Shown here: positions 4,976 to 64,000 of the stretch, one piece after another
How the letters are laid out: every line of letters starts with the position of its first letter
How positions within the stretch are numbered: the stretch's first letter is position 1
Source: Mytilus californianus
Taxonomy: Eukaryota
NCBI RefSeq assembly: GCF_021869535.1
Contig: NW_026262679.1
Coordinates: 92,775,982-92,839,981 of the forward strand
DNA length: 64,000 nt
Direction of reading: 5' to 3'
Notes under the pieces: generated by a model
The model's database searches: none
What the model was told of the DNA's origin: nothing
What the model saw: the letters and a program-made list of their open reading frames with translations, nothing else
Program-made: the position numbers and the translations under genes

Positions 4976-6757
4976 TTTTTATATGACCGCAAAAATTTTT
5001 GCGGTCGTATATTGGTATGACGTTGGCGTCATCGTCGTCGTTGTTGTCTTCGTCCTGCGTCATCCGAAGACACATTGGTTTTCGCACTCTAACTTTAGTT
5101 TAAGTGAATGGATCTCTATGAAATTTTACCATAAGGTTCAATACCACAAAAAGAAGGTTGGGATTGATTTTGGGGGTTATGGTACTAACAGTTAAGGAAT
5201 TAGGGGCCAAAAAGGGGCCAAAAATAAGCATTTTTGTAACTTCCAGACAAAACTTGTGTGTTAGTGTATGGATCTCTCTGACATTGTACCACAAGGTTCC
5301 ATATCACAAAGGGAATGCTGGGATTGATTTTGGGGGTAATTGCCTCAAAATATTAGGAATTAGGGGCCAAAAAAGGGGCAAAAAACAAGCATTTTTCTAG
5401 TTTCATGACAATAACTTGTGTGAAAGTGTATCCATCTTTCTGAAATTGTACTACAAGGTTCCATATCACAAAGGGAAAGCTGGGTTTGAGTTTGGGGGTA
5501 ATTGCCCGAAACGTTTAGGAATAAGGGGCCAAAAAGGGGCCAAAAATAAGCATTTTTCTAGTTTCCAGACAATAACTTGTGTTCAAGTGTATGGATCTCT
5601 CTGAAATTGTACTGCAAGGTACCATACCACAAAGGGAAGGCTGGGATTGAGTTTGGGGGTGATGAATCATAAGGGGGTTCAAAAAATTGGGGGGGGGGGG
5701 ATTTTTTTTTTTTCCTTTTTTTTTTCTTTTAAAATTTTCCATTTTAAGTTGGTTATTTCTGATTTATATTTAAAAGCAAATAACAATGATATGGTAGGAG
5801 ATACACACCAAACAGGATGTGTAAATTATTATATAATAAGTATTGTGCAATAGCAAGAAATTTTCAATTGCACAGTATTGCACAATAGCAAGAAATCTTC
5901 AATTGCACAGTATTGCGCAATAGCAAGAAATCTTTAATTGCACAGTATTGCGCAATAGCAAGAAATATCCAATAGCACAATATTGCGCAATAGCAAGAAA
6001 TTGTCAATTGTGCAGTATTGCGCAAAAGAAGATACTTCGTATAAATTGCTTATTTCTTGACCAATTTCAATGGGGTTTTATTCTTGAATTCTTGGGGTTC
6101 TTTAATATGCTGAATCTAACCGTGTATTAAGTTTTTGGATTTTGGGCCCCATTTTTAAATTGGTCCACATTGAGGTCCAAAGGGTCCAAAATTAAACTAA
6201 GTTTGATTTCATCAAAAATTGAATTCTTAGGGTTCTTTGATATGCTGAATCTAAACATGTATTTAGATTTTTGATTATGGGCCCAGTTTTCAAGTTGGTC
6301 CAAATCGGGGTCCAAAATTAAACTTTGTTTGATTTCAACAAAAATTGAATATATGGGGTTATTTGATATGCTGAATCTAACCATGTATTTAGATTTTTGA
6401 TTTTTGGGCCCCGTTATCATTTTTGTCCACATTGAGGTCAAAAGGGTCCAAAATTAAACTTTGTTTGATTTCATCAAAAATTGAATTCTTGGGGTTCTTT
6501 GATATGCTGAATCTAACCATGTATTTAGATTTTGGATATTGGACCATAATAGGTGAATGTCCAATTTAAAATTTTTAAGTTCTTAGACCACATTCATTCT
6601 GTGTCAGAAACCTATGCTGTGTCAAATATTTAATCACAATCCAAATTCAGAGCTGTATCAAGCTTGAATGTTGTGTCCATACTTGCCCCAACTGTTCAGG
6701 GTTCGACCCCTGCGGTCGTATCAAGCTGCGCCCTGCGGAGCATTTTATTTTTTATTT
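4976..6757 (+). mobile_element. Composite non-autonomous element, family A, copy 1. Its parts in order: hairpin head, GTC-rich microsatellite, roughly 146-bp satellite in 4 units, G/T homopolymer, 35-bp repeat array, roughly 135-bp satellite in about 4 units, conserved tail.
   Basis: Head palindrome 'gaccgcaaaaatttttgcggtcgtata'. The tail reads '...ccccaactgttcagggttcgacccctgcggtcgtatcaagctgcgccctgcggagcattttatt'. It shares the same ordered modules with 12493-14585 and 25882-29300. Confidence 0.8.
5843..6035. repeat. 35-bp tandem repeat (about 6 units), each unit near-palindromic. The same array occurs at 13388-13610 and 26793-27020.
   Basis: 'tattgcgcaatagcaagaaatcttcaattgcacag' is repeated directly with no spacers. 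Confidence 0.85.
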
Positions 6758-7230: not shown

Positions 7231-8112
7231 TAGTCCCCTACCCACGAAGTTGAAAAGGACTTATGGTTTGCACTCTGTCCGAGTGTCTGTCTGTCTGTCC
7301 ATCAGTCAGTCCGGCAAATCAGTTTTCCACACTTTTTTTCTTCATGCTTGAAGATATTGATTTGATATTTGGTATATAGTTTTATCATGACTAGTTACAG
7401 ATCAAGTTCAAATTTTGTTCCGGTCTGATGATTTTGTGCAGAGTTATGGTCCTTGGACTTAGGAAATTCACGCAAGTAAAAGTTTTCCACACTTTTTTTT
7501 GTCATGCTTAAAGATATTGATTTGATATTTGGTATATAGTTTTATCATGACTAGTTACAGATCAAGGTCGAATTTTGTTCTGGTCTGATGATTTTATGCT
7601 GAGTTATGGTCCTTGGACTTAAAAAATTCACGCAAGTTATCAGTTTTCTGCACTTTTTTTGTCATGCTTAAAGGTATTAATTTGATTTTTGGTATATAGT
7701 TTTATCATGACTAGTTACAGATCAAGTTCAAATATTGTTGCGGTCTGATGATTTCGAGCAGAGTTATGGTCCTTGGACTTAAAAAAATTCAAGAAAGTAA
7801 ACAGTTTTCCGCATTTTTTTTCAACATGCTTGAAGATATTGATTTGATATTTGGTATATAGTTTTACCATGACAAGTTACAGATCAAGTTCAAATTTGGT
7901 TCAGTTCGGATGATTTTGTTTGGCAGAGTTATGGTCCTTGAACTTAGAAAATTCACTCAAATAATCTGTTTTCCACACTTTTTTTTGTTATGCTTGAACA
8001 TGTTGAAGATATTGATTTGATATTTGTTATAAAGTTTACACCATGACAAGTTATAGATCAAGTTAAAATTTTGTCCAAGTACAATGGATTTTTAACCGGA
8101 AGGGGACTATGT
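7231..8112 (+). mobile_element. TIR-flanked element carrying a GTC-rich microsatellite and an internal tandem array of about 125 bp in about 6 units
   Basis: The TIR is 'tagtcccctaccc' at 7231 and 'ggaaggggacta' at 8098, with a possible TA target duplication. The internal unit is 'cagttttccacactttttttgtcatgcttaaagatattgatttgatatttggtatatagttttatcatgactagttacagatcaag...'. Confidence 0.65.
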
Positions 8113-8488
8113 ATTGCCATGCAATACTCTCAGAATGCTTGTTCTATTTAAAATGCAATACTCTTAAATTTACGACTTTCAAGATAATATTCTGTTTGCA
8201 AAATAAAGCCGCAGTTACTTTGTATATGATCAGGTTAGCCATAATGCAAAATCTAAATTGCTTTCCCCATAATGTGCCGCAATTCATACTGTTTAAAACA
8301 TTTGTCATCTGTTTAGGACATCATATTATTTTAATTTGATTTATTTGTTTTGGGGGATTTTTTTGTTGTTTTCCAATCTCTCCATACATTTATATGCTTA
8401 TTTTTCTAGGCAATGCATACGTTTAATAGAACATGTATCTATTAATTTCAACCTTTAGAAGACATACTACTTACTTTATTGTTTTTAG

Positions 8489-12023: not shown

Positions 12024-12492
12024 GTATGTATTGCATTGGATATTTAAGGATGTATTTCCATGTTTATAGGAATCTTGTAAAAACATAAACCAGATATTCA
12101 AGGGAATGGAAACATAATTAAAACATTGTGGGGGTATTTTAGATAATTTTGAAGACTTCTTTTACATTAGGGGTCCCTTAATTTAAGGTTTAGGGCAGGG
12201 CTTCCAAAATTATTTTTAGCCAGCCGGACATTTTATATATTATCCTGATTTTAATCCCTTAAGACTAAATAAATAAAAGGCAATTATGGTAATCAGTTGC
12301 CGAGTTGGCCATCCGAATGATTGACATTAAAAAAAAACCGATATTAAACTTTCTTTGATTCAAATTCGAAGTTCTGACATAAACTGTTAAATTGGCAGTG
12401 CATCATTTGAAGTGTGCAACATCAGCGTACTTATATCTGCTTAGACTCTTTATTTGTGCAAAATAACGTTGTCAAAAACTTTACTTTCGTTT

Positions 12493-12545
12493 TTATACGA
12501 CCGCAAAAATTAAAAATTTTTTGGTCGTATATTGGTATGACGTTG

Positions 12546-12577
<32 letters not shown>

Positions 12578-14585
12578 CGGCGTCGTCCGGCGTCGTCCGA
12601 AGACACATTGGTTTTCGCACTCTAACTTTAGTTTAAGTGAATGGATCTCCATGAAATTTCACCATAAGGTTCAATACCACAAAAGGAAGGTTGGGATTGA
12701 TTTTGGGGGTTATGGTACCAACAGTTAAGGAATTAGGGGCCAAAAAGGGGCCAAAAATAAGCATTTTTGTAACTTTCAGACAATAACTTGTGTGTAAGTG
12801 TATGGATCTCTCTGACATGTACCACAAGGTTCCATATCACAAAGGGAAGGCTGTAATTGATTTTGGGGGTAATTGCTTCAAAATTTTAGGAATTAGGGGC
12901 CAAAAAAGGGGCAAAAAACAAGCATTTTTCTAGTTTCATGACAATAACTTGTGTGTAAGTGTTTGGATATTTCTGAAATTGTACTACAAGGTTCCATATC
13001 ACAAAGGGAAAGCTGGAATTGAGTTTGGGGGTAATTGCCCGAAACGTTTAGGAATTGGGGGCCAAAAAGGGGCCAAAAATAAGCATTTTTCTAGTTTCCA
13101 GACAATAACTTGTGTTCAAGTGTATGGATCTCTCTGAAATTGTACTGCAAGGTACCATACCACAAAGGGAAGGCTGGGATTGAGTTTGGGGGTGATGAAT
13201 CATAAGGGGGTTCAAAAAATTGGGGGGGGGGATTTTTTTTTTTTTTTTTTTTCTTTTTTTCCTTTTTTTTTTCTTTTAAAATTTTCCATTTAAAGTTGGT
13301 TATTTCTGATTTATATTTAAAAGCAAATAATAATGATATGGTAGGAGATACACACCAAACAGGATGTGTAAATTATTATATAATAAGTATTGTGCAATAG
13401 CAAGAAATTTTCAATTGCACAGTATTGCACAATAGCAAGAAATCTTCAATTGCACAGTATTGCGCAATAGCAAGAAATCTTCAATTTAACAGTATTGCGC
13501 AATAGCAAGAAATATCCAATAGCACAATATTGCGCAATAGCAAGAAATTGTCAATTGTACAGTATTGCGCAATAGCAAGAAATATTCAATTGCACAGTAT
13601 TGTGCAAAAGAAGATACTTCGTATAAATTGCTTATTTCTTGATCAATTTCAATGGGGTTTTATTCTTGAATTCTTGGGGTTCTTTAATATGCTGAATCTA
13701 ACCGTGTATTAAGTTTTTGGATTTTGGGCCCCGTTTTTAAATTGGTCCACATTGAGGTCCAAAGGGTCCAAAATTAAACTTTGTTTGATTTCAACAAAAA
13801 TTGAATATATGGGGTTCTTTGATATGCTGAATCTAAACATGTATTTAGATTTTAGATTTTTGGCCCAGTTTTCAAGTTGGTCCAAATTGGGGTCCAAAAT
13901 TAAACTTCGTTTGATTTCAACAAAAATTGAATATATGGGGTTCTTTGATATGCTGAATCTTACCATGTATTTAGATTTTTTATTTGTGGGCCCGCTATCA
14001 AATTGGTTCATATTGAGGTCAAAAGGGTCCAAAATTAAACTTTGTTTGATTTCATCAAAAATTGAATTATTGGGGTTCTTTGATATGCCAAATCTAACTG
14101 TGTTTTTAGATTTTTAATTTAGGGTCCCGTTTTTTAAATTTGTCTACATTAAGGTCCAAAGGGTCCAAAATTAAACTTAGTTTGATTTTAACAAAAATTG
14201 AATTCTTCGGGTACTTTGATATGCTGAATCTAAACATGTGTTTAGATTTTTGATTATGGGACCAGTTTTCAAGTTTGTCCAAGTTGGGGTCCAAAATTAA
14301 ACTTTGTTTGATTTCAACAAAAATTGAATATATGGGGTTCTTTGATATGCTGAATCTAACCATGTATTTTGATTTTGGACATTGGACCATAATAGGTAAA
14401 TTAAAAAAATTGAAGTTCTTAGACCACATTCTTTCTGTGTCAGAAACCTATGCTGTGTCAAATATTTAATCACAATCCAAATTCAGAGCTGTATCAAGCT
14501 TGAATGTTGTGTCCATACTTGCCCCAACTGTTCAGGGTTCGACCTCTGCGGTCGTATCAAGCTGCGCCCAGCGAAGCATTTTATT
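12493..14585 (+). mobile_element. Composite element family A, copy 2. It has (GTC)12, 4 units of the 146-bp repeat, a 35-bp array and about 6 units of the 135-bp satellite.
   Basis: Head 'tatacgaccgcaaaaattaaaaattttttggtcgtata' is a perfect 9-bp-arm hairpin. The tail reads '...gcggtcgtatcaagctgcgcccagcgaagcattttatt'. Confidence 0.8.
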
Positions 14586-15405: not shown

Positions 15406-15439
15406 TATGGGTTGGGATCCCTAAGGTAATATAATGCCA

Positions 15440-16440
15440 TTTATGTCGAGCCTTCGACTTTAGTCGAAAAAGCAAGGCATAGCGATCCTACATTCCGTCG
15501 GCGTCGTTGTCGTCGGCGGCTTCCACAAATATTCACTCTGTGGTTAAAGTTTTTGAAATTTTAATAACTTTCTTATACTATCCTGGATTTCTACCAAACT
15601 TGGACAGAAGCTTGTTTATGATCATAAGATAGTATCCAGAAGTAAATTTTGTAAAAATAAAATTCCATTTTTTCCGTATTTTACTTATAAATGGACTTAG
15701 TTTTTCTGCCGGGAAATATTACATTCACTCTGTGGTTACAGTTTTTAAAATTTTAATAACTTTCTTAAACTATCCTGGGTTTGTACCAAACTTGGACAGA
15801 AGCTTGTTTATGATCATAAGATAGTATCTAGAAGTAAATTTTGTAAAAAAATAAATCCATTTTTTCCTTATTTTACTTTTAAATGGACTTAGATTTTCTG
15901 CTTGGAAACAACACATTCACTCTGTGGTTAAAAGTTTTTAAAATTTTGATAACTTTCTTATACTATTTTGGATTTGTACCAAACTTGGACAGAAGCTTGT
16001 TTATGATCAAAAGCTAGTATCTAGAAGGAAATTTTGTAAAAAAATAAATCCATTTTTTTCGTATTTTACTTTTAAATGGACTTAGATTTTCTGCCAGGAA
16101 ACAACATATTCACTCTGTGGTTAAAGTTTTTAAAATTTTAATAACTTTCTTATACTATTTTGGATTTGTACCAAACTTGGACAGAAGCTTGTTTATGATC
16201 AAATGCTAGTATCTAGAAGGAAATTTTGTTTTTTTCCAGTTAACATTACATTCAGTCTACAGTTAAAGTTTTTAAACATTTATTAGATTCATAAACTATC
16301 CTGGATTTTTACCAAACTTGGGCAGAAGCTTCCTACAATCAAAAGATAGTATCAAGAGGAATATTTTTATTGATTTACTTCCTCGTTTTTGTTGAGCCTG
16401 CGATTAACAGAAAAAGTAGGCGAGACACTGGGTTCCGCGG
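15440..16440 (+). mobile_element. Composite element with head 'tgtcgagccttcgactttagtcgaaaaagca', a (GTCG/GGCG) microsatellite, a tandem array of about 185 bp in about 5 units, and a tail 'ttgttgagcctgcgattaacagaaaaagtaggcgagac' that partly repeats the head
   Basis: The unit '...cattcactctgtggttaaagtttttaaaattttaataactttcttatactat..tggatttgtaccaaacttggacagaagcttgtttatgatca.aag.tagtatctagaag.aaattttgtaaaaaaataaatccattttttc.tattttacttttaaatggacttagattttctgcc.ggaaa' is repeated head-to-tail. Confidence 0.65.
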
Positions 16441-17197
16441 AACCCTTACGAATTTTTGGTTATTGTTTTTCAGAGGATGATGCAACAGTCAAATTATATT
16501 TAAATATGGTATCGGGTCTGCAAAATGTGCATTTTCTCCCATTTTTCTCCTCAAATGCATGAATTTATATTCAGACTACCCCTTAACAGTGCCTATCCAG
16601 GATTTTGAGGATAGGGGGCATAATTGTGCATAATGGTAGAAAAACAGGTGAGCGTAGTGATTAAAAAATGTTTTGATGATTTTATGCCACAAATTTTTTT
16701 CCAGTCAAAGTGGTTCACCTTCTACAACCTCCTGAGTCTGCCAATGCTTAATATACAGAAAAGTTGCAAGGGCTAAATGGCAACTTCCTTGAACATTTTC
16801 ATTAGGAAACAGTAAAGATGTATTTATGCCTTTTAAAAAGCTGGACTGATTACAAGGAAGAGGTCATTCATTTGAAAATGGTGCTATTTCAATCAAGGTT
16901 AAGAAGGTTACATACTGTCAACTCTAATTTGTATATAACACTGACCTATAATCATATATTTAGACTCAATCCAATTATTATTAAGACAATTACTAATGAT
17001 TACTCAAATCCATTGAATTATTGAATAGTTTGTGACGTAATTAGAATAAACTTTTGAATGATCACATGAAAATAGTACATTTTATGAACTTTTTGGTAGA
17101 ATAATTAAAATTTCTTGTAGAATTATAACAAGTCTGCACTTGTTTGAAATTAAAATTTAGATACTAGTTACTAGTCATATAAATTTTCTTCTTTCAG

Positions 17198-25881: not shown

Positions 25882-25957
25882 GTCCTTTTTATACGACCGC
25901 AAAAATTGAAAATTTTTTGGTCGTATATTGGTATGACGTTGGCATCGTCGTCGTCGA

Positions 25958-25988
<31 letters not shown>

Positions 25989-28900
25989 TGGCGTCGTCCG
26001 AAGACACATTGGTTTTCGCACTCTAACTTTAGTTAAAGTGAATGGATCTCCATGAAATTTTACCATAAGGTTCAATACCACGAAAGGAAGGTTGGGATTG
26101 ATTTTGGGGGTTATGGTACCAACAGTTAAGGAATTAGGGGCCAAAAAGGGGCCAAAAATAAGCATTTTTGTAACTTCCAGACAATAACTTGTGTGTAAGT
26201 GTATGGATCTCTCTGACATTGTACCACAAGGTTCCATATCACAAAGGGAAGGCTGTAATTGATTTTGGGGGTAATTGCCTCAAAATTTTAGGAATTAGGG
26301 GCCAAAAAAGGGGCAAAAAACAAGCATTTTTCTAGTTTCATGACAATAACTTGTGTGTAAGTGTTTGGATATTTCTGAAATTGTACTACAAGGTTCCATA
26401 TCACAAAGGGAAAGCTGGAATTGAGTTTGGGGGTAATTGCCCGAAACGTTTAGGAATTGGGGGCCAAAAAGGGGCCAAAAATAAGCATTTTTCTAGTTTC
26501 CAGACAATAACTTGTGTTCAAGTGTATGGATCTCTCTGAAATTGTACTGCAAGGTACCATACCACAAAGGGAAGGCTGGGATTGAGTTTGGGGGTGATGA
26601 ATCATAAGGGGGTTCAAAAAATTTGGGGGGGGATTTTTTTTTTTCTTTTTTTTTCTTTTTTTCCTTTTTTTTTTTCTTTTAAAATTTTCCATTTTAAGTT
26701 GGTTATTTCTGATTAATATTTAAAAGCAAATAATAATGATATGGTAGGAGATACACACCAAACAGGATGTGTAAATTATTATATAATAAGTATTGTGCAA
26801 TAGCAAGAAATTTTCAATTGCACAGTATTGCACAATAGCAAGAAATCTTCAATTGCACAGTATTGCGCAATAGCAAGAAATCTTCAATTGCACAGTATTG
26901 CGCAATAGCAAGAAATATCCAATAGCACAATATTGTGCAATAGCAAGAAATTGTCAATTGTACAGTATTGCACAATAGCAAGAAATATTCAATTGCACAG
27001 TATTGTGCAAAAGAAGATACTTCGTATAAATTGCTTATTTCTTGATCCATTTCAATGGGGTTTTATTCTTGAATTCTTGGGTATTTAATATGCTGAATCT
27101 AACCGTGTATTAAGTTTTTGGATTTTGGGCCCCGTTTTTAAATTGGTCCACATTGAGGTCCAAAGGGTCCAAAATTTAACTTTGTTTGATTTCATCAAAA
27201 ATTGAATTATTGGGGTTCTTTGATATGCCGAATCTAACCGTGTATTTAGATTCTTAATTTTTGGTTCCGTTTTCAAATTGGTCTACATTAAGGTCAGAAG
27301 GGTCCAAAATTAAACTTAGTTTGATTTTAACAAAAATTGAATTTTTAGGGTTCTTTGATATGCTGAATCTAAACATGTATTTAGATTTTTGATTATGGGC
27401 CCAGTTTTCAAGTTGGTCCAAATCGGGGTCCAAAATTTAACTTTGTTTGATTTCAACAAAAATTGAATATATGGGGTTCTTTGATATGCTGAATCTAACC
27501 ATGTATTTAGATTTTTGATTTTTGGGCCCCGTTATCAACTTTGTCCACATTGAGGTCAAAAGGGTCCAAAATTAAACTTTGTTTGATTTCATCAAAAATT
27601 GAATTCTTGGGGTTCTTTGATATGCTGAATCTAACCATGTATTTAGATTTTTTATTTGTGGACCCGCTATCAAATTGGTTCATATTGAGGTCAAAAGGGT
27701 CCAAAATTAAACTTTGTTTGATTTCATCAAAAATTGAATTATTGGGGTTCTTTGATATGCCAAATCTAACCGTGTATTTAGATTTTTAATTTTGGGTCCC
27801 GTTTTTAAATTGGTCTACATTAAGGTCCAAAGGGTCCAAAATTAAACTTAGTTTAATTTTAACAAAAATTGAATTCTTGGGGTTCTTTGATATGCTGAAT
27901 CTAAACATGTGTTTAGATTTTTGATTATGGGCCCAGTTTTCAAGTTGGTCCAAGTTGGGGTCCAAAATTAAACTTTGTTTTATTTCAACAAAAATTGAAT
28001 ATATGGGGTTCTTTGATATGCTGAATCTAAACATGTATTTAGATTTTAGATTTTTGGCCCAGTTTTCAAGTTGGTCCAAGTTGGGGTCCAAAATTAAACT
28101 TTGTTTGATTTCAACAAAAATTGAATATATGGGGTTCTTTGATATGCTGAATCTAACCATGTATTTAGATTTTTTATTTGTGGGCCCGCTATCAAATTGG
28201 TTCATATTGAGGTCAAAAGGGTCCAAAATTAAACTTTGTTTGATTTCATCAAAAATTTCATTATTGGAGTTCTTTGATATGCCAAATCTAACCGTGTATT
28301 TAGATTTTTAATTTTGGGTCCCGTTTTTTAAATTGGTCTACATTAAGGTCCAAAGGGTCCAAAATTAAACTTAGTTTGATTTTAAGAAAAATTGAATTTT
28401 TGGGGTTCTTTGATATGCTGAATCTAAACATGTGTTTAGATTTTTGATTATGGGACCAGTTTTCAAGTTGGTCAAAGGTGGGGTCCAAAATTAAACTTTG
28501 TTTGATTTCAACAAAAATTGAATATATGGGGTTCTTTGATATGCTGAATCTAAACATGTATTTAGATTTTAGATTTTTGGCCCAGTTTTCAAGTTGGTCC
28601 AAATTGGGGTCCAAAATTAAACTTTGTTTGATTTCAACAAAAATTGAATATATGGGGTTCTTTGATATGCTGAATCTAACCATGTATTTAGATTTTTTAT
28701 TTTGTGGGCCCTCTATCAAATTGGTTCATATTGAGGTCAAAAGGGTCCAAAATTAAACTTTGTTTGATTTCATCAAAAATTGAATTATTGGGGTTCTTTG
28801 ATATGTCAAATCTAACCGTGTTTTAAGATTTTTAATTTTGGGTCCCGTTTTTTAAATTGGTCTACATTAAGGTCCAAAGGGTCCAAAATTAAACTTAGTT

Positions 28901-29300
28901 TGATTTTAACAAAAATTGAATTCTTGGGGTACTTTGATATGCTGAATCTAAACATGTGTTTAGATTTTTGATTATGGGACCAGTTTTCAAGTTTGTCCAA
29001 GTTGGGGTCCAAAATTAAACTTTGATTGATTTCAACAAAAATTGAATATATGGGGTTCTTTGATATGCTGAATCTAACCATGTATTTTGATTTTGGACTT
29101 TGGACCATAATAGGTAAATTAAAAAAATTGAAGTTCTTAGACCACATTCTTTCTGTGTCAGAAACCTATGCTGTGTCAAATATTTAATCACAATCCAAAT
29201 TCAGAGCTGTATCAAGCTTGAATGTTGTGTCCATACTTGCCCCAACTGTTCAGGGTTCGACCTCTGCGGTCGTATCAAGCTGCGCCCAGCGAAGCATTTT
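25882..29300 (+). mobile_element. Composite element family A, copy 3. Its 135-bp satellite array is expanded to about 16 units (27040-29110).
   Basis: It has the same head, (GTC)n, 146-bp repeats, G/T tract, 35-bp repeats and tail as copies 1 and 2. Only the 135-bp array length differs. Confidence 0.8.
27040..29110. repeat. Tandem satellite with a period of about 135 bp and about 16 units, internal to family-A copy 3
   Basis: Unit 'ttgaattcttggggttctttgatatgctgaatctaaccatgtatttagattt..gggccc.gtttt.aaattggtc.acattgaggtccaaagggtccaaaattaaactttgtttgatttcatcaaaaa' recurs head-to-tail. The track ORFs on both strands here are artefacts. Confidence 0.85.
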
Positions 29301-29312
29301 ATTGTTTTTTAG

Positions 29313-33894: not shown

Positions 33895-34495
33895 TTATGC
33901 CCCCATTGTAGCGGAGGGGCATTAAGTTTACCTAGCCATTGTCAACCTTGTCAGTCTGTTTTCTATTCTCTAACTTTAGTTTGCCTCAACGAAATGTTGT
34001 GAAACTCATACACAATGCTTATTACCACAAAACACGATCAAGTTTGAATTTTGGTGGCATCACTTATACTGTTTTAAAGTTATGCCCCTTTACAAAAGGA
34101 AAAATTGCTGAATTTTTTGTTTCCGTTCTCTAGCTTAAGTTTCCCTCAACCAAATGTTATGAAACTTATACACAATGCTTATTACCACATAATACAGATC
34201 AAGTTTAAATTTGGTGATGTTACTTTAACAGTTCCAGAGTTATGCCAGTTTACAAATGGAAAAATTGCTGAATTTTTTCGTTTCCGTTCTCTTACTTATG
34301 TTTACCTGAACTAAATGTTATGAAACTTATACACAATGCTTATTACTACAAAATACAGATCAAGTACAAATTTAGGTAGGATCACTTTTACCGTTCTTCA
34401 GTTATGTCCCTTTAAAACTTTATATGATATGCAAGCGGGGTCATCATCTGTGTTCCATGGACACATTCCCCATTTATTGTTTTCTATGGTATTCA
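33895..34495 (+). mobile_element. Composite element family B: head 'ttttatgcccc..gtagcggaggggcattaag' (hairpin), three units of about 165 bp, tail '...gggtcatcatctgtgttccatggacacattccccatttatt'
   Basis: Unit 'gtt..cgttctctaactttagtttgcctcaac.aaatgttatgaaact.atacacaatgcttattaccacaaaacacagatcaagtttgaattttggtggcatcactt.tac.gtt.t..agttatgcccctttacaaa.ggaaaaattgctgaattttttgtttcc'. Related copies occur at 42730-43760 and 60465-61090. Track ORFs 33939-34545 are artefacts. Confidence 0.7.
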
Positions 34496-41309: not shown

Positions 41310-41575
41310 GATGTATGTGCTGAATCTAACCATGTATTTAGATTTTGGATATTGGACCATAATAGGTAAATGTTCAAAATCAAATTTTTACGTTTTTTGA
41401 CCACATTCATTCTGTGTCAGAAACCTATGCTGTGTCAAATATTTAACAAAATATCCAAATTCAGAGCTGTATCAAGCTTGAATGTTGTGTCCATACTTGC
41501 CCCAACTGTTCAGAATTTTGACCTCTGCTGTTGTATCAAGCTGCACTCTGTGGAGCATTTCATCCTTTAAGTGTT
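41310..41575 (+). mobile_element. Truncated family-A element: one 135-bp unit plus tail only
   Basis: 'gctgaatctaaccatgtatttagattttggatattggaccataataggtaaatg...cagaaacctatgctgtgtcaaatattt...cagagctgtatcaagcttgaatgttgtgtccatacttgccccaactgttcag...' matches the 3' 250 bp of copies 1-3. Confidence 0.7.
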
Positions 41576-42729: not shown

Positions 42730-43760
42730 TTTTATGCCCCTGCCGTAGCGGAGGGGGCATTAAGTTTTACCCTTGTCCGTCTGTACGTACGTCCTTCCGT
42801 CCGTCTGTATGTCCCAAAGTTGGTTTCCGTTCTCTAACTTTAGTTTGCTTCAACCGAATGTTATGAAACTTATACAAAATGCTTATTACCACAAAACACA
42901 GATCAAGTTTGAATTTTGGTGGCATCACATTTACCATTGTTGAGTTATGCCCCTTTACAAATGAAAAAAAATGCTGAATTTTTTGTTTCCGTTTTCTAAC
43001 TTTAGTTTGCCTCAACCAAATGTTATTAAACTTACACAAAATGCTTATTTCCACAAAATACAGATCAAGTCTGAATTTTGGTGGTGTCACTTCAACCGTT
43101 GTTGAGTTATGCCCCTTTACAAATGAAAAAAATGCTGATTTTTTTGTTTCTGTTCTCTACCTTTAGTTTGCCTCAACCAATTTATTAAACTTATATAAAA
43201 TGCTTATTACCACAAAATACAGATCAAGTTAGAATTTTGGTGGTGTCACTTCAACTGTTCTGGAGTTATGCTCATTTACAAATGGAAAAATATGAATCTA
43301 ATATCTGTTCTAAAAATATCAATGATGTAATTGTTAAAATTATTTTTTTAAATTGAGTTATCTTCCTTTGTCCATAATTGTAGTTGAATCAACTACAATT
43401 ATGGACAAAATTAATTTTAACAATTACATCAACTACAACCAATGCTTTATACAATGCAATGTTCACTGGAAAAATTAAAACAATCTTTACCCTTCAGTGC
43501 TTACAAGCACTTTGATTAATGTTCTTCAGTGTTGTCCCTTTATAACCTTATATGATATTTTGTTTTCGTTCTCTAACTTAAGTTTGTCTCAACTAAATTT
43601 AATGAAATGTATATATAATGCTTATTAACACTTAACTCAGTTTAAGTTCAAATTTTGGAAGCGTCACTTTTACAGTTCTTGAGCTATGTCCCTTTATAAT
43701 GTTATATGCTAACGGGGGCATCATCTGTGTCCCTATGGACACATTCCCAATTTATTTTAT
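42730..43760 (+). mobile_element. Family B composite element copy. It has head, (GTCCGTCC/GTACGTAC) microsatellite and 3-4 units, and is interrupted at about 43300-43550 by a palindrome-bearing insertion before the last unit and tail.
   Basis: Head 'tttatgcccctgccgtagcggagggggcattaagttttacccttgtccgtctgtacgtacgtccttccgtccgtctgtatg'. The tail reads '...ggggcatcatctgtgtccctatggacacattcccaatttatt'. Confidence 0.65.
43335..43435. repeat. Near-perfect nested palindrome of about 100 bp (foldback or hairpin MITE) inside family-B copy 2
   Basis: 'gatgtaattgttaaaattat...tttgtccataattgtagttgaatcaactacaattatggacaaaattaattttaacaattacatc'. The inner 21-bp arms are perfect. Confidence 0.7.
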
Positions 43761-54550: not shown

Positions 54551-54701
54551 ATGGGTGAAACAAAGCCCAAAGTTGTGATCATCGGTGGAGGGATCTCCGG
54601 GATAGCCTTAGGAGACCATCTCGCTAAAAATGGATTCAAAGATTACGTTATACTTGAAGCGTCAAATAGAACAGGCGGTAGAATTTATACCGTCAATCTC
54701 G
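54551..54701 (+). CDS. First coding exon of an FAD-dependent polyamine/spermine oxidase: MGETKPKVVIIGGGISGIALGDHLAKNGFKDYVILEASNRTGGRIYTVNL
   Basis: It contains the Rossmann dinucleotide-binding motif GGGISG...E...GGR. The start ATG has a good Kozak context (aaggatATGG) with an in-frame TGA nine nt upstream. The donor is G|GTAAGT at 54702. Confidence 0.75.
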
Positions 54702-56370: not shown

Positions 56371-57622
56371 GACAAAAAAGTCTGGTAGGAAAATGCAATA
56401 TATGTTCTTTGTTATTAGTAAAATATGTAACATGCTTCCTTTCTATTTCTCAGTCTTTTCCCTTTATTTTTCTATAGAAAGCTTATATACAATTAAAAGG
56501 ATTTGGTACATGTATGTTTACCAATGCGACAACAAATCAATAGGGTCTGTATGACGTGGATTTAAGCAACCATAGATCACCCTACAGCCTTCAACAGTGT
56601 GCAAAAATCCAAATAGTCCTGAAGCTTTTAAATATCCATCTTTTTGACATGTTTGAAGAAGTTTATATTATATTACATGTACAAGTAAAAATATCAATGT
56701 ACATGTACATTTATAAATGTAACAATCAGATATTTGTTAAAAAAGAAGTAACTTCAAGTAACGAAGTCATAGTCATATTTATATAATGTTATGTTACATA
56801 TATTGATGGTGCAAAACATTTCCATGGCCATGAATTGGAACATGTACATACACAAGGTTCTCACTAAGGATTTTTGAAGGCGAGTCTTTGGCCATGATGA
56901 GTCCAACAGTGAGAAGAAGAAATTGTATTGCCATACATGTATAATTTATTATTTCAGTCTCTATCACAAAGTAGAGCATGGAAATGACATCAAATTTAGA
57001 TTATTTTTAACTTTTGCTATAAAATGATGATGTGAGTGCTCAATTTATACAACATTTTACAACCTTAATGCACTTTGGACTCACCAGTTTTGAAAATGAT
57101 GAGTCCAGACAGATTTTCACGAGTCCAGGACTCATGGACTTGCCTTAGTAAGAACCCTGCATACATGTAGAATGTAAAACCATTGACCAGAGTATACTTG
57201 TATTCTCTTTGGTACATATGTCACTGCTTTATATAGGATTGACTTTTTGTTCCTTTTATACATATCATTTTTGCACACTCAAACTTTTGAATGTAACCAT
57301 TCTTGTTAAAATCAGTTTATTAACTTACATGTATTATTGTAAACACCCATTTAGTCTTCCTTATTACACTTTCTGTAACCACATATAAACCTGACATATA
57401 AACCTTGCATCTGGTTAAATGATTGTTATGACTACATTTGTACATATATACATTCTTTCTGAAAATGGCACATTAAAAATTGAAGTTATAAATTTTAAAA
57501 ACCAAAGTAAATATCATGTACATGTTAAAGCCAAGAACTCCATTAAAATTAGTAATGTTTTTCGAAGAAAATGAAATTCTAAATCAAGTAATATAACTGT
57601 TTTTAACTATGATGTTTTTCAG

Positions 57623-58538
57623 ATGCCGAAGGCCATAAAGCGGAAATGGGGGCCAATTGGATACACGGCATAGAAAGAAACCCAATTTTTAAAATTGCTG
57701 ATGACAATAATTTGCTAGAATTGAGACATGGTAATAAAGGTCTTCGTAATAAAACATCCTTTAAAATGGAAAACGGAGATGAAGTAACTGAAAAAATAGT
57801 CAATCAAGTAAATTTGAACTATGGGCAACTTATTATGCAAGCAGAGGATTTTTATCAAAGTGGTATGCCCACAATGGAAGAAAATGATAGTGTTGGAGCA
57901 TTTCTGGAACGTGAATATGAAGACACTTTGGAACGGTATACAAATGGTGACCGTCATGTTAGAGAATTGTTGTTTGATCAGCGAAAAAGGCTAGAGTGTT
58001 GTATATCTGGCTGTGATACATTGTCAGAGGTTTCTTTGAGTGAGTTTGGAAGTTATGAAGAACTACCAGGTGTTCATTATACAATCCCACCAGGTTTTAC
58101 TGCAGTTTTAGAAATCCTAAAAAGTAGTATTCCAAAGGAAAATATTTTACTCAATCATCCAGTCAAATGTATACGATGGAATAGACAATTTCCAGAGCCA
58201 GAAAAAAATGTTTATGAATGTTGTGTTGAATGTGAAAACGGTGAAAAATTCTATGCAAATCACGTAATATGTACAGTTTCACTAGGTGTTTTAAAAGCTG
58301 CTTGTGATAGGATGTTTAGCCCACCATTGCCTAAAATGAAATTAGATGCAATTGATGCAGTAGGATTTGGCATTGTAGACAAAGTTATTGTTCAGTTTGA
58401 TGAACCAGTGACAGAGCCCGAATTGTTTCGAGTAGAACTTGTGTGGGACAATGATCTCATTGAAATGAATGATCTGCGACACACATGGTATCGTAAAATA
58501 TACTCCTTTGAAGTGGTACATGACAATGTTTTAGTTGG
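57623..58538 (+). CDS. Polyamine/spermine oxidase exon 2: DAEGHKAEMGANWIHGIERNPIFKIADD...LRHTWYRKIYSFEVVHDNVLVG
   Basis: Acceptor ttttcAG at 57621-57622 restores the frame from exon 1, and the donor is GTGAGT at 58539. The '(E)MGANWIHG' motif is characteristic of amine oxidases of the PAOX/SMOX family. Track ORF 57646-58554 lies in the same frame. The C-terminal exons were not located in the window. Confidence 0.75.
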
Positions 58539-59379
58539 TGAGTATGATAGTTAAAGTGGCATTGTTGCTATCTAGACTGTCTTTTTTTTTCACCTAGATT
58601 GAATCAACGTATGAATAATGAATTTTTAAAGTTTAAATTCTGTTGCTGTGCAGTTAGTAATTTAAAAGACCATCATGACCACTCTAGTATTGCTTCATCA
58701 GTACAAATATCATGTAATAATATATATACTTTAAGTATTATCAATGATTATAAGATACACCTACGAGGACCTTAACCCGATTGGCTGTATCTAATTTACA
58801 CCAAGATATTAAGGTTAATACAAAAGAATGATTTTAATAATTTAGGAGAGGGGTCTTGCAGCAATTTGATATATTTTATGGTAAAGCATGATAAATGCAG
58901 GATATCCAATCTTGGTTTAAAAAAAACTTGCAGAACATTTTTTGTACTACTAGAGAGTCTTGCATGTATGTACGTGAATGTTGGACAATGTAAAATTAGG
59001 AGGCCAAAGTCAGTTTGATTTAGCCATTTATTATTTATTTACTTTTACTGTTCATGTACATGTACATGTACATGTATCTGAGGAAAAGGGTGTTTTGTTT
59101 TTTCCTGAAGTGTTTTGAATAATTTTTCTTTGTGGAGAGATTTTTGTGTAAATATTTCTTTTTCGGATATTTATATTTATTATTAAGTACTGTTATTATC
59201 ATGATTATTATTTAGTTGTTACCATGCATGGTACATTTGTAACAGAACAAAATCAATAGTTACCAGGTGCTACAAATGTATTTGTACATGTACATTGTAT
59301 GTATATACATATACAGTACATTTAGGCATACTAATAATACTTGTGTTTCCACCAACCCAACCAGCCCTAATTTTTTGTC

Positions 59380-60370
59380 ATTTTTATACGCCCGTTTACG
59401 GGACGTATTATGGTATACCCTTGTCCGTCTGTCCGTCCGTCCGTCTGTCTGTCCGTCCGTCATCAACATGTCGGACATTAACTCAAAAATGCTTTAACCA
59501 ATTTGCATAAAACTTTGGTGAATTGTTTATATCTATTGACGTGAGCTCCCTTTGGTTATTATAAATTTTAGATTTTATGTTTCCGAGTTATGGGGTTTTA
59601 TTCATTAAAAAAAGGGGGTTTTCCAGTTTTCGGACAATAACTCAAGAATGCTTTCGCCAACTTGCAAGAAATTGTGGTGAATTGTTTATATCTATTAACA
59701 TGAGCTCCCTTTCAATTTTTATATATTTTAGATTTTACGTTTTTGAGTTACAGGGTTTTATTCATAAAAAAAAGGGGGATTAGTTACAGGGTTTTATTCA
59801 TAAAAAAGGGGGATTTTTGAGTTTTCGGACAAAAAATCAAAAATGCTTTGGTGAATTGTTTATATCTATTGATGTACTCTGTTTAGAATTTTATAAATTT
59901 TACATTTTACATTTCTGAGTTATGGGGTTTTATTCATTAAAAAAGGGGGGATTTTTCACTTTTCGGACAACTTCTCAAAAATGCTGTCAGCAATTCTCAT
60001 GAAACTTTGGTGAATTGTTTATATCTATTGATGTAAGCTCACTTTACATTTTCATAAATTTCTAATATGACATTGAGATTAAATTGAACTTTATTTGTTT
60101 ATAGTCTGACAACAGATTTACTAAGTATTGCGCAACAGCACAGTGTATTGCACAACAGCAAGAAATCTTTAATTGAATATAAATTCAATTCATATAACCA
60201 ATTTCAAGTTCTTTGACTACATTTATTCAGAAACCTATAATATGTCATAAAATATTTAATACAATCCAAATTCAGACCTGTATCAAGCTTGAATATTGTG
60301 TCCATTTTTGCCCCAACTGTTCAGGGTTGGACCTCTGCGGGTGTATCCAGCTGCGCTCAGCGAAGCAGTT
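59380..60370 (+). mobile_element. Family-A-related variant. It has a different hairpin head (tatacgcccgtttacgggacgtat), (GTCCGTCC)n, an array of about 125-130 bp in about 5 units, two 35-bp-type units, then the family-A tail.
   Basis: The tail 'ccaaattcagacctgtatcaagcttgaatattgtgtccatttttgccccaactgttcagggttggacctctgcgggtgtatccagctgcgctcagcgaagcagtttatt' is homologous to the family-A tail. The internal array is unrelated to the 135/146-bp satellites. Confidence 0.7.
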
Positions 60371-60464
60371 TATTTGAACAAGCATTTGTTAAAGTCAGAC
60401 TTTTGAAACCAGTTAAGAAAACTTTTGAAAAATACAAAAATAATAACTATCGTGTATTTTTATG

Positions 60465-61090
60465 CCCCCGCCGTAGCGGAGGGGGCATTAAGTTTTACCC
60501 TTGTCTGTCCGTACGTACAGATGTACGTACGTATATGTACGTCCCAAAATTGGTTTCTGTTCTCTAACTTTAGTTTGCCTCAACCAAACTTTGAAACTTA
60601 TACACAATGCTTATAACCACAAAACACAGATCAAATTTGAATTTTGGTGGCATCACTTTTGCTGTTCTAGAGTTATGCCCCTCTACAAATGGAAAAATTG
60701 CTGAATTTTTCGTTTCCATTCTCTTACTTTAGTTTGCCTCAAACAAATGTTATGAAACTTATACACAATGCTAATTACCACATAACACAGATCAAGTTCG
60801 AATTTTGGTGGTGTCACTTTTGCTGTTCTAGAGTTATGCCCCTTTACAAATGGAAAAATTGCTGAATTTTTTGTTTCCATTCTCTTACTTTAGTTTGCCT
60901 CAACCAAATGTTATGAAACTATACACAATGCTTATTACCACAAAACTCAGATCAAGTACAAATTTGGGATTCGTCACTTTTACAGTTCTTGAGTTACATA
61001 TATGTACATGTATATCCCTTTATAACATTATATGCAAGGAGGGCATCATCTGTGCCCCATTGACACATTCCCCATTTATTTAACTTTTAA
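60465..61090 (+). mobile_element. Family B composite element copy (head, three units, tail), immediately downstream of the family-A variant
   Basis: Head 'ttttatgcccccgccgtagcggagggggcattaagttttacccttgtctgtccgtacgtac...'. The tail reads '...ggagggcatcatctgtgccccattgacacattccccatttatt'. Track ORFs 60289-61083 are artefacts. Confidence 0.7.
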
Positions 61091-62559
61091 AAATATATCT
61101 GATCCAATTTTATAAAAAAATGTTTCCAGAATAAAAGATCTTCAGTTAGGAATGCGATGAGTAAATGATCTCTGTTACATGTACATGTAAGTGTACATTG
61201 TAGGTCTTGCATGCTAATACTGTTCTTCACCCTTGTATTGGGTTCAGAATTTTATGATTTATTACTATCCAGGTTCAACTGGTACTTTAATACATTCATT
61301 CATGTACATCCGTCAATTATTACAAAGGACAAGCTCATCTCGGCCAGGTTTCTGAAAATTTCAAAGCTGGCTTTCAAATTATATAAAAGAGAAAAAAAGA
61401 AGGAAAGGTTGATTGCAGAAAATATGTGAAGCAGTGACTCAACAGAAATGTTGATCATGTTAATCCTCTCAGACAACATGCAGTGAAAACGATTAACTTT
61501 TAAGGTGAAGGGATGGTAAGAAATGAAAATGTAAAGTAATACATGTTCATGTGAAAAGAAAACATATTTGTTTCGGAGGACAGTAACCTGTGATTTGTCC
61601 TTGTGTGACATGAAAGCTGTGCAGTGTTGCATCAATAACTTATATATATATACTCTAACTCTGACAGTAAATTAATTTACCTACCATATTTTGCGAAATT
61701 GGTATTGTTGAAATGTTGTAAATAGATTGTTTTAGAATCATAAATTTGTATTTTTACTGTTCAATTGTGTGTGCATACAATTTTAAATGATCTTTTAATT
61801 TTAAGGGCATCCCCAGTCTGTAGAATTACAAAAGGTAAAGAGTTCATTGCCCGGTCAGTTTTCAGTCAATGGGTTATTTCATGTCTTCTGTATCGATTAT
61901 AATGAAGGCTCAGTGTAGCATTTGCCTTCTTTCAATTGCATCGGTCAATAAACTTTCTGCACAATACTGACCTTGGGTGATGTTGATAATTTTGTGAAGA
62001 GAGAGTTGTTTTCTGTCTTACCCATATGCATGATATGCATGTAAATGATTTTTCTTTCCCCAATATAAGTCAATTATTTTCCCACTATGTTTTGTTAATT
62101 AATTTCATCCTGAGACACTGGAGAATATTTTGGTATTACTTAAAATAATCACTGCTTGTGGCTATAAGCATGGCCACATAAATTCTATTACAAATGTCAA
62201 TGAATGTAATGAGCATACTTTATAATTTTATTTCTTTTTCAAAATTATTCTTTGGTCATTTCTAATGTGTTTGATATTGATTTGAAATTTTCACAAATAA
62301 ATGGCAGAATGTTTAATTATTTTACAACTTTTGTGTCAAAAGAACATTTGTACAAAAAATGTATGGATGTTTCATGAACGGTCATCATGATGTCATGTGT
62401 GTTGGACACAAAATCAAAATTTTTTCATGGCAAATTAGCCAAAGTAGATATGGCACACAGGGATTGCTGTGCTGTATACATATCTCTTGTCTGTTTTACT
62501 GGTCATTCGGTCTTTAACTGGCCTTTGCCCAATATCTGGTGACCTTGGGAATGTCTGAT

Positions 62560-64000
62560 ATATTTAGTGTATGGAATGATTGTTAGGTGAACATGTCCGA
62601 CTGGCAGGTCTCGTCTGACCTTGACCTCATTTTTATGATTCAGTGCTCAATGTTAAGTTTTTCCAGTTTGGTCTATTTCTTGGATACTATAAGCAATAGG
62701 GCCACTATTTGGTGTATGGAGCAATTGTAAGGTGAACATGTCTGTCGAGCAAGTTCATATGACTGTGACCTCATTTTCACGGTTCATTCAAAGGTTAAAG
62801 TTTTGTTGTGTTTGAGTCTGTTTCTCAAGTACTATAATATAAGCAATAGGCCTATTAGGGTCACTATATTTGTTGTATGGATGCTTACAGGGAGTACATT
62901 GTACATGTCTGTCTTGCATGTTTCATTTGACCTTGACCTCATTTTCATATCTCATGGGTCAATTTTAAGGTTTCATGGTTTTGTCAGTTTATCCGATACT
63001 ATAAGCAATAGGTCATTTATATTTGGTCTATGGAATGAATGTAATGTGATCAAGTCTGTCTGGCAGGGTTCTTTTGACTGTGACCTCATTTTTTTGTCAT
63101 TGGTCAATATTAAGTTTTCATGATTACATGTATGTCTGTTTCTTAGATTCTATAATATAAACAATAGATCAACTATATTTGGTGTTTGGAATGATTACAT
63201 GGTATACATAACATGGTGTCTCACAGGGTTCATATGACCTTGACCTCATTTTTATTGTCGAGCCTGCGACAAAACAGAAAGCTCGACATAGGGATAGTGA
63301 TCTGGTGGCGGCGGTGTTAGCTAACTTCTTAAAAGCTTTATATTTTAGAAGATGGAAGATGTGGATGCGTCATACTTTGTATATTGATGCCTTATGTTAT
63401 GAAGTTTCCAGCTGTCGCATGTCCATTGTCCTTGACCTCATTTTCATAGATCTGTGCACGTGACTACTTGAAAAAAAAGTTAAGATTTTTTGTAATGTTA
63501 ATTTCTCTCTTATTATGAGTAATAGGATAACTATATTTGGTATGTGCTTACCTTGCAATGTCCTCATGCCCGTCAGACAGTTTTCACTTGACCTCGACCT
63601 TGTTTCATGGATCAGTGAACAAGGTTAAGTTTTGGTGGTCAAGTCCATATCTCAGATACTAGAAGCAATAGGGCTAGCATATTTGGTGTATGGAAGGACT
63701 GTAAGGTGTACATGTCCAACTGGCAGGTGTCATCTGACCTTGACCTCATTTTCATGATTCAGTGGTTATAGTTAAGATTTTGTGTTTTGGTCTGTTTTTC
63801 TTATACTGTATGCAATAGGTCCACTATATTTGGTGTATGGAATAATTGTAAGGTGTACATGTCTAGCTGGCATGTGTCTTCTGACCTTGACCTCATTTTC
63901 ATGGTTCAGTGGTCCAAGTTAAGTTTTTGAGTTTTGGTCTTTTTTTCTAATACTATATGCAATAGGTCATCTATATTTGGTGTACATGTATGGAAATATA
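62560..64000. repeat. Satellite of about 147 bp with about 9 units, containing a 'tgaccttgacctcatttt' core. It is interrupted at 63245-63330 by a head/tail-like motif ('tgtcgagcctgcgacaaaacagaaagctcgac' plus 'ggtggcggcggtg') related to the 15440 element termini.
   Basis: Unit 'tatttggtgtatggaatgattgtaaggtgaacatgtc.gactggcaggt.tc.tctgaccttgacctcattttcatgattcagtg.tcaatgttaagtttt...gtttggtct.tttcttggatactataagcaatagg.cac' is repeated. Track ORF 62803-63123 is an artefact. Confidence 0.75.

Follow-up and report, generated by a model that had tools for sequence, protein, structure and literature searches.

A Helentron-Type Element of Mytilus californianus that Probably Shares Both Its Ends, but Not Its Central Array, with a Neighbouring Family

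Introduction

Can the ends of one transposable element be joined to different tandem arrays and carry them to new places? This question is raised by a 1-kb element in a stretch of 64,000 nucleotides from Mytilus californianus (NCBI RefSeq assembly GCF_021869535.1, contig NW_026262679.1, positions 92,775,982 to 92,839,981 of the forward strand). This whole stretch, which is AT-rich (32% GC), is called the window here, and all positions are counted from its first letter. In an earlier note, the element was placed at 59380-60370 and described as a modular one: the tail of a repeat family of the same window, family A, preceded by two 35-bp-type units, was thought to be coupled to a different head hairpin, a microsatellite and an unrelated array of 125-130 bp, and the termini were proposed to spread satellites by Helitron/Helentron-like rolling-circle capture.

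We consider it probable (about 0.78) that 59381-60374 is one copy of a non-autonomous Helentron-type transposon (HINE) and that it is, at either end, sister to family A. Head and tail are related to those of family A, and only the carried arrays differ. Read in this way, the 1-kb stretch is an ordinary non-coding HINE, of the kind known to scatter short satellite arrays in bivalve genomes.

The Right Arm Is Shared with Family A

By aligning the heads and tails of the copies, and from the identity over the last 60 bp, the element was refined to 59381-60374 on the plus strand, about 1 kb; the element first described is real, but its ends are corrected to 59381 and 60374. Its anatomy is as follows.

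59381..59385, +, 5' terminus, a T-run (TTTTT) at which the homology with the family-A copies starts (four-head alignment, pattern search)
59385..59408, +, head hairpin: 5' subterminal inverted repeat (subTIR) TATACGCCCG at 59385-59394, loop TTTA, and inverted repeat (IR) CGGGACGTAT at 59399-59408
59409..59422, +, conserved left-flank linker TATGGTATACCCTT between hairpin and microsatellite
59423..59461, +, (GTCY)n microsatellite, about 9.8 tetranucleotide copies, GTCC/GTCT (TRF)
59468..60075, +, central array of ~159-bp monomers, 3.6 copies (TRF period 159, 70% matches)
59468-59626, +, monomer m1, 159 bp (phasing and alignment)
59627-59821, +, monomer m2, 195 bp, with an internal 36-bp duplication
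59822-59959, +, monomer m3, 138 bp, with a 21-bp deletion
59960-60075, +, monomer m4, partial, ~116 bp
60076..60126, +, spacer of 51 bp after the array
60127..60175, +, 35-bp units, ~1.5 copies, 86% identical to the family-A units (BLAST, E 1e-7)
60176..60201, +, spacer TATAAATTC..ACCAATTTCA, homologous to the family-A spacer that precedes the 126-bp array of that family; here the tail follows directly
60202..60374, +, right flank (tail), homologous to the family-A tail (BLAST, alignments)
60337..60347, +, positional 3' subTIR GCGGGTGTATC, complementary to the element's own 5' subTIR at 8/10 to 8/12 (matrix, shuffled null)
60350..60366, +, 3' palindrome GCTGCGC-tca-GCGAAGC, 6 bp and one internal mismatch (folds)

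The copies of family A with which it was compared are these.

4976..6749, +, A1: head, (GTC)n, 161-bp array of 3.5 copies, poly-G/T, 35-bp array of 5.6 copies, 136-bp array of 3.4 copies, tail
12490..14585, +, A2, family-A copy whose 126-bp array has 5.3 copies
25886..29303, +, A3, family-A copy whose 126-bp array has 15.4 copies
41315..41564, +, 5'-truncated family-A copy: ~75 bp of the last partial unit and a degenerate junction, then the tail

The similarity of the right end (60180-60370) to the family-A tail, as claimed from the letters alone, was borne out by alignment over ~175-181 bp at 79-84% identity (E down to 4e-52), and it is long rather than limited to low-complexity sequence. The stretch 60202-60375 is 83.4% identical to 6573-6750 over 181 bp (E 7e-50), 84.1% identical to 14407-14585 and 29125-29303 over 182 bp (E 4e-52), and 79% identical to 41386-41563 in the truncated copy (E 2e-38). 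In the last 60 bp the identity to A1-A3 is 85-90%; in terms of the published classification rule, this holds for the last 60 bp, whereas the subTIRs lack identity over 11 bp. The homology also extends upstream of the tail, through ~1.5 of the 35-bp units, where two had been counted before, and the spacer. In a global alignment the right arm (60120-60375) is colinear with that of A1 minus its 126-136-bp array, in the order 35-bp unit(s), TATAAATT...ACCAATTTCAA, and then AAGTTCTT... to the end. The family-A-type 35-bp unit in the element contains the palindrome-like TATTGCGCAA / TATTGCACAA.

At the 3' end, the palindrome GCTGCGC-nnn-GCGRAGC, 8 nt before the end, is conserved in 5/5 tails, and in the element it is followed by the 8-nt 3' end AGTTTATT. 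All copies run to GCAKTTTATT (GCA(T/G)TTTATT) and then diverge completely. In the truncated copy the palindrome (41539-41555) reads GCTGCAC...GTGGAGC, a G-C pair being replaced by A-T with the stem kept; since CpG decay would produce changes of either kind, they speak only weakly for selection to keep the stem.

The Head Is a Diverged Relative of the Family-A Head

The predicted head hairpin was confirmed by folding at 59385-59408, and the predicted microsatellite was found as (GTCC/GTCT)n at 59423-59461 in 9.8 copies. Alignment showed that the homology of all four heads, those of A1-A3 and of the element, begins at TTTTTATA, while the sequences upstream of this type of start (59381) are unrelated in all four copies. 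The 5' subTIR TATACGCCCG begins ~4 nt inside the element and is complementary to the IR CGGGACGTAT after a 4-nt loop; this hairpin has a 9-bp stem with one bulge (DNA fold, free energy -7.1 kcal/mol, z -2.6) and is homologous, by alignment and pattern search, to the family-A hairpin TATACGACCGCA...GGTCGTATA, which has a 14-bp stem (z -6.2). The linker sequence TGGTAT is common to the element and family A. The pattern TTTTTATAYGNCCG-N(3-30)-CGTATWWTGGTAT has exactly four matches in the 64 kb, at 4976, 12490, 25886 and 59381, with 0.00 expected in shuffled sequences; in other words, the 25-base signature that flanks the hairpin is present only at the heads of A1, A2 and A3 and in the studied element. 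The head is thus a diverged homologue of the family-A head and not a foreign one, because the family-A subTIR/IR signature is common to both, and the idea of a different head had to be given up.

These results also bear on the reading from which the earlier note started, in which 3' read-through or end bypass in the Helitron style linked a family-A tail with a head and an array foreign to it, so that the element would be a chimera. The stem and loop sequences of the hairpin do differ between element and family A, and by BLAST their first arrays show no relationship. Against this, the family-A-specific 25-base signature lies on both sides of the hairpin and is absent elsewhere in the 64 kb, no relic 3' end (subTIR and palindrome) is found between the array and the 35-bp units, and the whole right arm, not the tail alone, is colinear with family A. 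We therefore hold such a chimera to be very unlikely: coupling of the tail to an unrelated head, the part that would have been new, is not supported, and capture in the Helitron style by 3' read-through is not indicated.

A mosaic left flank, with an A-type hairpin and a B-type linker, was considered as well. Part of the linker, ACCCTTGTC, is common to the element and the heads of another family, B, at 42759-42808 (82% over 50 bp, mostly microsatellite); this candidate was rejected, since the likeness to B outside the microsatellite is only ~7 nt. Co-evolution of head and tail was also considered, as a T-to-G change relative to family A occurs in the 5' subTIR, the IR and the 3' subTIR. Compensation is not claimed, because the tail of the element fits the family-A head as well as its own.

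Different Central Arrays between Related Flanks

The central array was expected to have a period of 125-130 bp; this did not hold, TRF giving 159 bp and 3.6 copies. With a profile built from its own monomers, the monomers of the element were matched at E 1e-31 to 4e-47 (nhmmer). In family A, a 161-bp array of 3.5 copies, a poly-G/poly-T tract and a ~130-bp spacer lie between the flanks, where the element has its 159-bp array and the 51-bp spacer. No significant similarity was found between the monomers of the element and the 161-bp or 126-bp monomers of family A (BLAST with word size 7, nhmmer profiles), and no family-A homologue of the spacer at 60076-60126 was detected in a sensitive BLAST of the element against A1 and A2. 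The earlier statement that the termini can carry different arrays is in agreement with this absence of significant similarity between the central arrays. Homology of a deeper kind between the 159-bp and the other ~160-bp monomers was not significant in local-alignment permutation tests, and gave nhmmer E values of at least 0.2.

Two routes could lead to this situation. Most likely, as judged from the sequence comparison, the central array was replaced between conserved flanks rather than changed by simple drift. Replacement is favoured because the flanks are 83-90% identical while the arrays lack significant similarity; under neutral drift at the rate of the flanks, orthologous arrays would still be easily recognisable. 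The new array probably came from elsewhere in a common broad pool of ~160-bp HINE repeats. The event would correspond to the 'group 2' pattern of the Cg_HINEs described in Crassostrea gigas, and array replacement or turnover is a better description of it than Helitron-style capture by 3' read-through.

The other route is vertical divergence only: an ancestral ~160-bp array of 3.6 copies would have diverged until it was no longer recognisable, while selection for transposability preserved the termini. We regard it as unlikely. The position of the array, its monomer length (159 versus 161 bp), its copy number (3.6 versus 3.5), the truncated last monomer and the monomer phase are alike in element and family A, and families A, B and C agree with the element in the phase that the monomers have relative to the left flank. 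The array starts with the box TTTTCGGACAATAACT in the element and TTTCCAGACAATAACT in family A, with the monomer-start box TTTYCRGACAATAACT shared, and a 36-bp box at the monomer junction is common to the element and the 161-bp monomers of family A (78%, E 7e-4). When the monomers of the element were rotated against those of families B and C, register 0 ranked first of 161, and the best sub-threshold profile matches were in register with the B monomers. However, the phase had been set from the shared start box and the rotation test is biased to that extent; against the family-A monomers the ranks are only 4th, 25th and 74th of 161. The register tests and the junction box are thus only suggestive signs of homology between the 159-bp and the other ~160-bp monomers. 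In addition, the flanks are 83-90% identical over long stretches that are unlikely to be functional throughout, so neutral orthologous arrays should still be ~75-85% identical, yet BLAST and nhmmer gave nothing significant.

Returning to replacement between the ends of a HINE, the similarities in array position, monomer length, copy number and phase and the junction box weigh against it, and some features of the ends weigh against the overall interpretation. In family A, TGCGGTCGTAT, the 3' subTIR, agrees at 11/12 positions with the reverse complement of the 5' subTIR, a score that shuffled 12-mers reach at a frequency of ~2e-4; in the element the complementarity is 8/12, reached by ~14% of shuffled 12-mers. 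The tail of the element fits the family-A head at 9/12, marginally better than its own head. Its 3' subTIR lies 27 nt from the end, as compared to the 38-60 nt quoted for mite HINEs. Finally, the variant is represented by a single copy in the window, and its own mobility is inferred from the end points that it has in common with family A. The weak pairing of the subTIRs is consistent with an old or decayed copy.

A 21-mer of the monomer matched a contig of a Bacteroidales metagenome-assembled genome; this was dismissed as a chance match, the contig being plainly bacterial. The same 21-mer gave no match in a viral scan.

Family A Disperses with Its Arrays

That the termini can carry tandem arrays, as proposed earlier, is observed directly in family A, in which three full copies with arrays lie in unrelated flanks. 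A1-A3 are 89-92% identical end to end across their 161-bp arrays, while the monomers within a copy are 82-85% identical. The array is part of the copied unit, because the copies are more alike than the monomers within a copy and the flanks are unrelated. The family-A termini do, therefore, disperse satellite-like arrays. The truncated copy is 89.8% identical between 6502-6754 and 41315-41569 (BLAST), and no homology was found upstream of ~41313 by alignment. It had been credited, at 41310-41575, with one whole 135-bp unit; what it keeps before the tail is ~75 bp.

Family A carries three arrays. The first, of 161 bp x 3.5, is colinear between copies; the second consists of 35 bp x 5.6-6.6; and the third, of 126-136 bp, varies in copy number (3.4/5.3/15.4). 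In A3, the 126-bp array contains a recent internal higher-order duplication of ~530 bp (94%), and this together with the length variation points to local expansion of the 126-bp array. The 35-bp units of family A (5839-6032, 13386-13614 and 26789-27017) contain a perfect 12-bp palindrome, TATTGCGCAATA. In another family, C (7226-~8150), a 3' palindrome GTATTGC-cat-GCAATAC is found at 8111-8127. The 35-bp array may be derived from a HINE 3' stem-loop.

The 126-136-bp array is the extra array of family A, and its junctions can be read at base level. It lies between CCAATTTCAA and AAGTTCTT (3.4, 5.3 and 15.4 copies), exactly between ...CCAATTTCAA and ...CCAATTTAAA(n7)AAGTTCTT, and the boxes CCAATTTCAA and CCAATTTAAA that bracket it were located at 6061-6070 and 6560-6569. 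At 60190-60206 of the element, a single CCAATTTCAA runs into AAGTTCTT, the two abutting as CCAATTTCAAGTTCTT, and the first and last units of the family-A array grade into that flank. This is compatible with birth or deletion of the 126-bp array at a short direct repeat (CCAATTTMAA). As a tentative and rather doubtful proposal, the comparison of element and family A may have caught the birth, or the clean loss, of a whole 126-bp array in the right flank of a HINE; the strand uniformity of the copies (see below) is a separate point. If the proposal were true, some HINE arrays would arise from the element's own sequence and not by capture, and HINEs with three arrays would exist.

Assignment to the Helentron-Type Elements

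HINEs are defined by subTIRs, of which the 5' one has an IR beside it, and by a microsatellite, central repeats and a 3' stem-loop (PMC4067079). The element shows the 5' subTIR with its IR, the microsatellite, the repeats and the stem-loop; at the position of the 3' subTIR, its complementarity to the 5' subTIR is 8/12. It is non-coding: the only long open reading frame (ORF) that touches it, at 60289-60567 (92 aa), runs across the tail and on into the following element, and it matched nothing in Pfam. The 5' subTIR near the end has its complementary IR nearby (59385-59408), and the left flank is closed by (GTCY)n, a microsatellite motif class also reported for the left flanks of Cg_HINEs (PMC7492417). 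A few central repeats within the range of ~140-180 bp follow in fixed orientation (159 bp x 3.6), and the palindrome lies 8 nt from the 3' end, within the typical ~8-35 nt. There is no target-site duplication, as no direct repeat occurs in the bases flanking five copies. In every copy the homology starts in the T5 run and ends in TTTATT, compatible with insertion between two T residues.

This supports a Helentron-type architecture of a non-autonomous rolling-circle element and not a canonical Helitron. The latter is defined by the ends 5'-TC...CTRR-3' and by insertion between A and T (PMC4067079); neither these ends nor this insertion site was found, the element having the ends TTTTTATA... and ...GCAGTTTATT, and the canonical Helitron was rejected. 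From the earlier attribution to Helitron/Helentron-like elements, the Helentron-type architecture remains, but the canonical Helitron ends are absent.

Could the element be something other than Helentron-type, such as a miniature inverted-repeat transposable element (MITE), a short interspersed nuclear element (SINE) or a non-mobile local satellite duplication with a conserved junction? Bivalve elements of such a type have historically been labelled MITE-like, and an inverted repeat does exist between head and tail. However, a MITE was rejected: the inverted repeats are subterminal, one lying ~4 nt inside the 5' end and the other 27 nt inside the 3' end, so that they are also asymmetric, and a target-site duplication is lacking. 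A SINE or RNA gene was rejected as well, as no tRNA was found in the window with ARAGORN, no Rfam family scored above the gathering threshold in 59000-61300, and the head is not that of a tRNA or other RNA family. Local duplication is excluded by the five tails, whose end points are identical although their flanks are unrelated. Taken as a whole, an origin outside the Helentron-type elements is extremely improbable.

For the Helentron-type element, a mechanism can be proposed by analogy with known Helitrons and Helentrons. The terminal structures would be recognised by a Rep/helicase protein, perhaps with an endonuclease, whose gene would belong to an autonomous Helentron at some other place in the genome; in the window, no Rep/helicase ORF was found by ORF and Pfam search. 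The DNA between the termini would be moved by rolling-circle, single-strand transfer into T-rich sites, leaving no target-site duplication, and the arrays would travel passively, their copy number changing by slippage or unequal exchange. While the sequence comparison shows the anatomy, the homology at both ends and the dispersal of family A together with its arrays, we infer the enzyme, its rolling-circle action, insertion at TT and the mobility of the copy at 59381-60374.

Comparison with Known Systems

The closest counterparts are the 11 Cg_HINEs of Crassostrea gigas, with their group 2 (Cg_HINE_3 and _6) and the double-array elements Cg_HINE_10_13 and _11_12 (Vojvoda Zeljko et al. 2020, PMC7492417). 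They have the same left flank, with 5' subTIR, complementary IR and GTCY-type microsatellite; short arrays of 140-180-bp monomers, mostly with fewer than five copies and in fixed orientation; a right flank with palindrome and 3' subTIR, the latter recognised in the element by its position; and insertion sites without target-site duplication in T-rich DNA, with which the ends of the element are compatible. Also alike are the related flanks with unrelated repeats and the occurrence of elements with two consecutive arrays. In oyster group 2, where flanks are related and repeats unrelated, the pattern has likewise been read as replacement of the central module, and filler insertion or recombination between elements have been put forward as candidate routes (PMC7492417). 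In contrast, host and sequences differ, and no terminal motif of the element was found in the oyster supplementary array lists; the right flank here is ~250 bp including the 35-bp units, versus a right-flank consensus of ~60 bp, and the arrays of family A number three (161, 35 and 126 bp) as against two. The three-array layout and the long right flank are minor variations.

The DINE-1/HINEs of Drosophila and mites (Thomas et al. 2014, PMC4067079) are likewise non-coding, with subTIRs, IR, microsatellite, central repeats, a 3' stem-loop and a T-rich/TT target, which the ends of the element would fit; the grammar alone is common, as there is no sequence similarity. Besides the position of the 3' subTIR given above, they differ in the subTIR complementarity, which is degenerate here. 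Pearl (CvA/CvE/CvG), MgE and DTC84, tandem-repeat elements of bivalves compared in architecture alone, have conserved flanks that enclose up to about six central repeats of ~160 bp, and they are dispersed in genes and introns; they were later reclassified as HINE/Helitron-type (PMC7492417, PMC11136912). Canonical Helitrons share a 3' hairpin near the end, the lack of a target-site duplication and a presumed rolling-circle mechanism, but the element has subterminal inverted repeats, starts with TTTTTATA and ends with TTTATT.

Published work on bivalves and Drosophila already includes the dispersal of different satellite-like arrays by terminal modules, the Helentron-type mechanism and truncated derivatives. 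The importance of the present case goes little beyond annotation; as in oysters, HINE families are scattered over this genome and move short satellite-like arrays into introns, and the pair of related families illustrates the known pattern of same flanks and different repeats. For masking and classification, the terminal signatures 5' TTTTTATAYGNCCG...CGTATWWTGGTAT and 3' ...GCTGCGC-NNN-GCGRAGCAKTTTATT can be used.

Genomic Setting and Other Copies

Most likely, the element lies in an intron of a spermine-oxidase-like gene, in sense orientation. Two exons were located upstream of it.

54551-54700, +, exon 1 of the spermine-oxidase-like gene, an FAD amine oxidase gene
57622-58539, +, next exon, residues 51-356 of the 475-residue protein

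The 302-aa ORF at 57646-58554 was assigned to the flavin amine oxidases by its Pfam match (PF01593, E 6e-23). Its relatives are molluscan spermine-oxidase-like proteins; the best of them with a species name is that of Mizuhopecten yessoensis at 74%, and the best overall, at 91% and 89%, are on short transcript-like contigs. The last ~119 residues of the protein were not found before position 64000, and the intron after the exon at 57622-58539 is at least 5.4 kb long and largely filled by HINE copies.

HINEs make up about one fifth of the window, with at least 11 copies. The 11 HINE-like copies with readable polarity, at 4976, 7226, 12490, 15435, 25886, 33895, 41315, 42735, 59381, 60456 and 63255, are all on the plus strand, which is also that of the spermine-oxidase-like exons and of exon-like stretches between the family-A copies. 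No minus-strand HINE copy was found in the 64 kb by self-BLAST or a microsatellite scan. If insertions were independent, such uniformity would have a two-sided binomial p of ~0.001; if general, it would mean strand-specific integration or retention of Helentron-type elements.

A pattern of 24 bases of the tail was used to scan sequences from outside. It had no matches in viral and bacterial/archaeal genomes, and in metagenomes it retrieved a single 1.5-kb marine contig (ENA ORXM01052533). Positions 1-510 of this contig consist of a family-A 126-bp array and tail, and the sequence switches to unrelated, coding-looking DNA at ...GCGGAGCAT/CTGG, in the last few bases of the element. The contig is probably a chimeric low-coverage assembly, but the marine sample must have contained DNA of this species or of a close one.

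Three copies of family B were found in the window.

33895-34478, 42735-~43300 and 60456-61080, +, family B: head TTTTTATGCCCCCGCCGTAGCGGAGGGGGCAT, (GTCY/GTAC)n, 160-bp array of 2.8 copies, tail ending ...GGGCATCATCTGTGCCCCATTGACACATTCCCCATTTATT

The third of these copies starts only 80 bp after the studied element. Two further repeat-carrying families, at 15435-16460 and 62561-63984, have heads of the type TGTCGAGCCTKCGAC... and CG-rich microsatellites, and one of them carries a 192-bp array. The head at 63255 lies inside ~147-bp arrays that are related on both sides (~71%), which suggests nesting. Just downstream of the array of the second family-B copy there is a near-perfect 43-bp palindrome (43367-43409, 97.7%), and further B-like monomers occur at 43540-43700.

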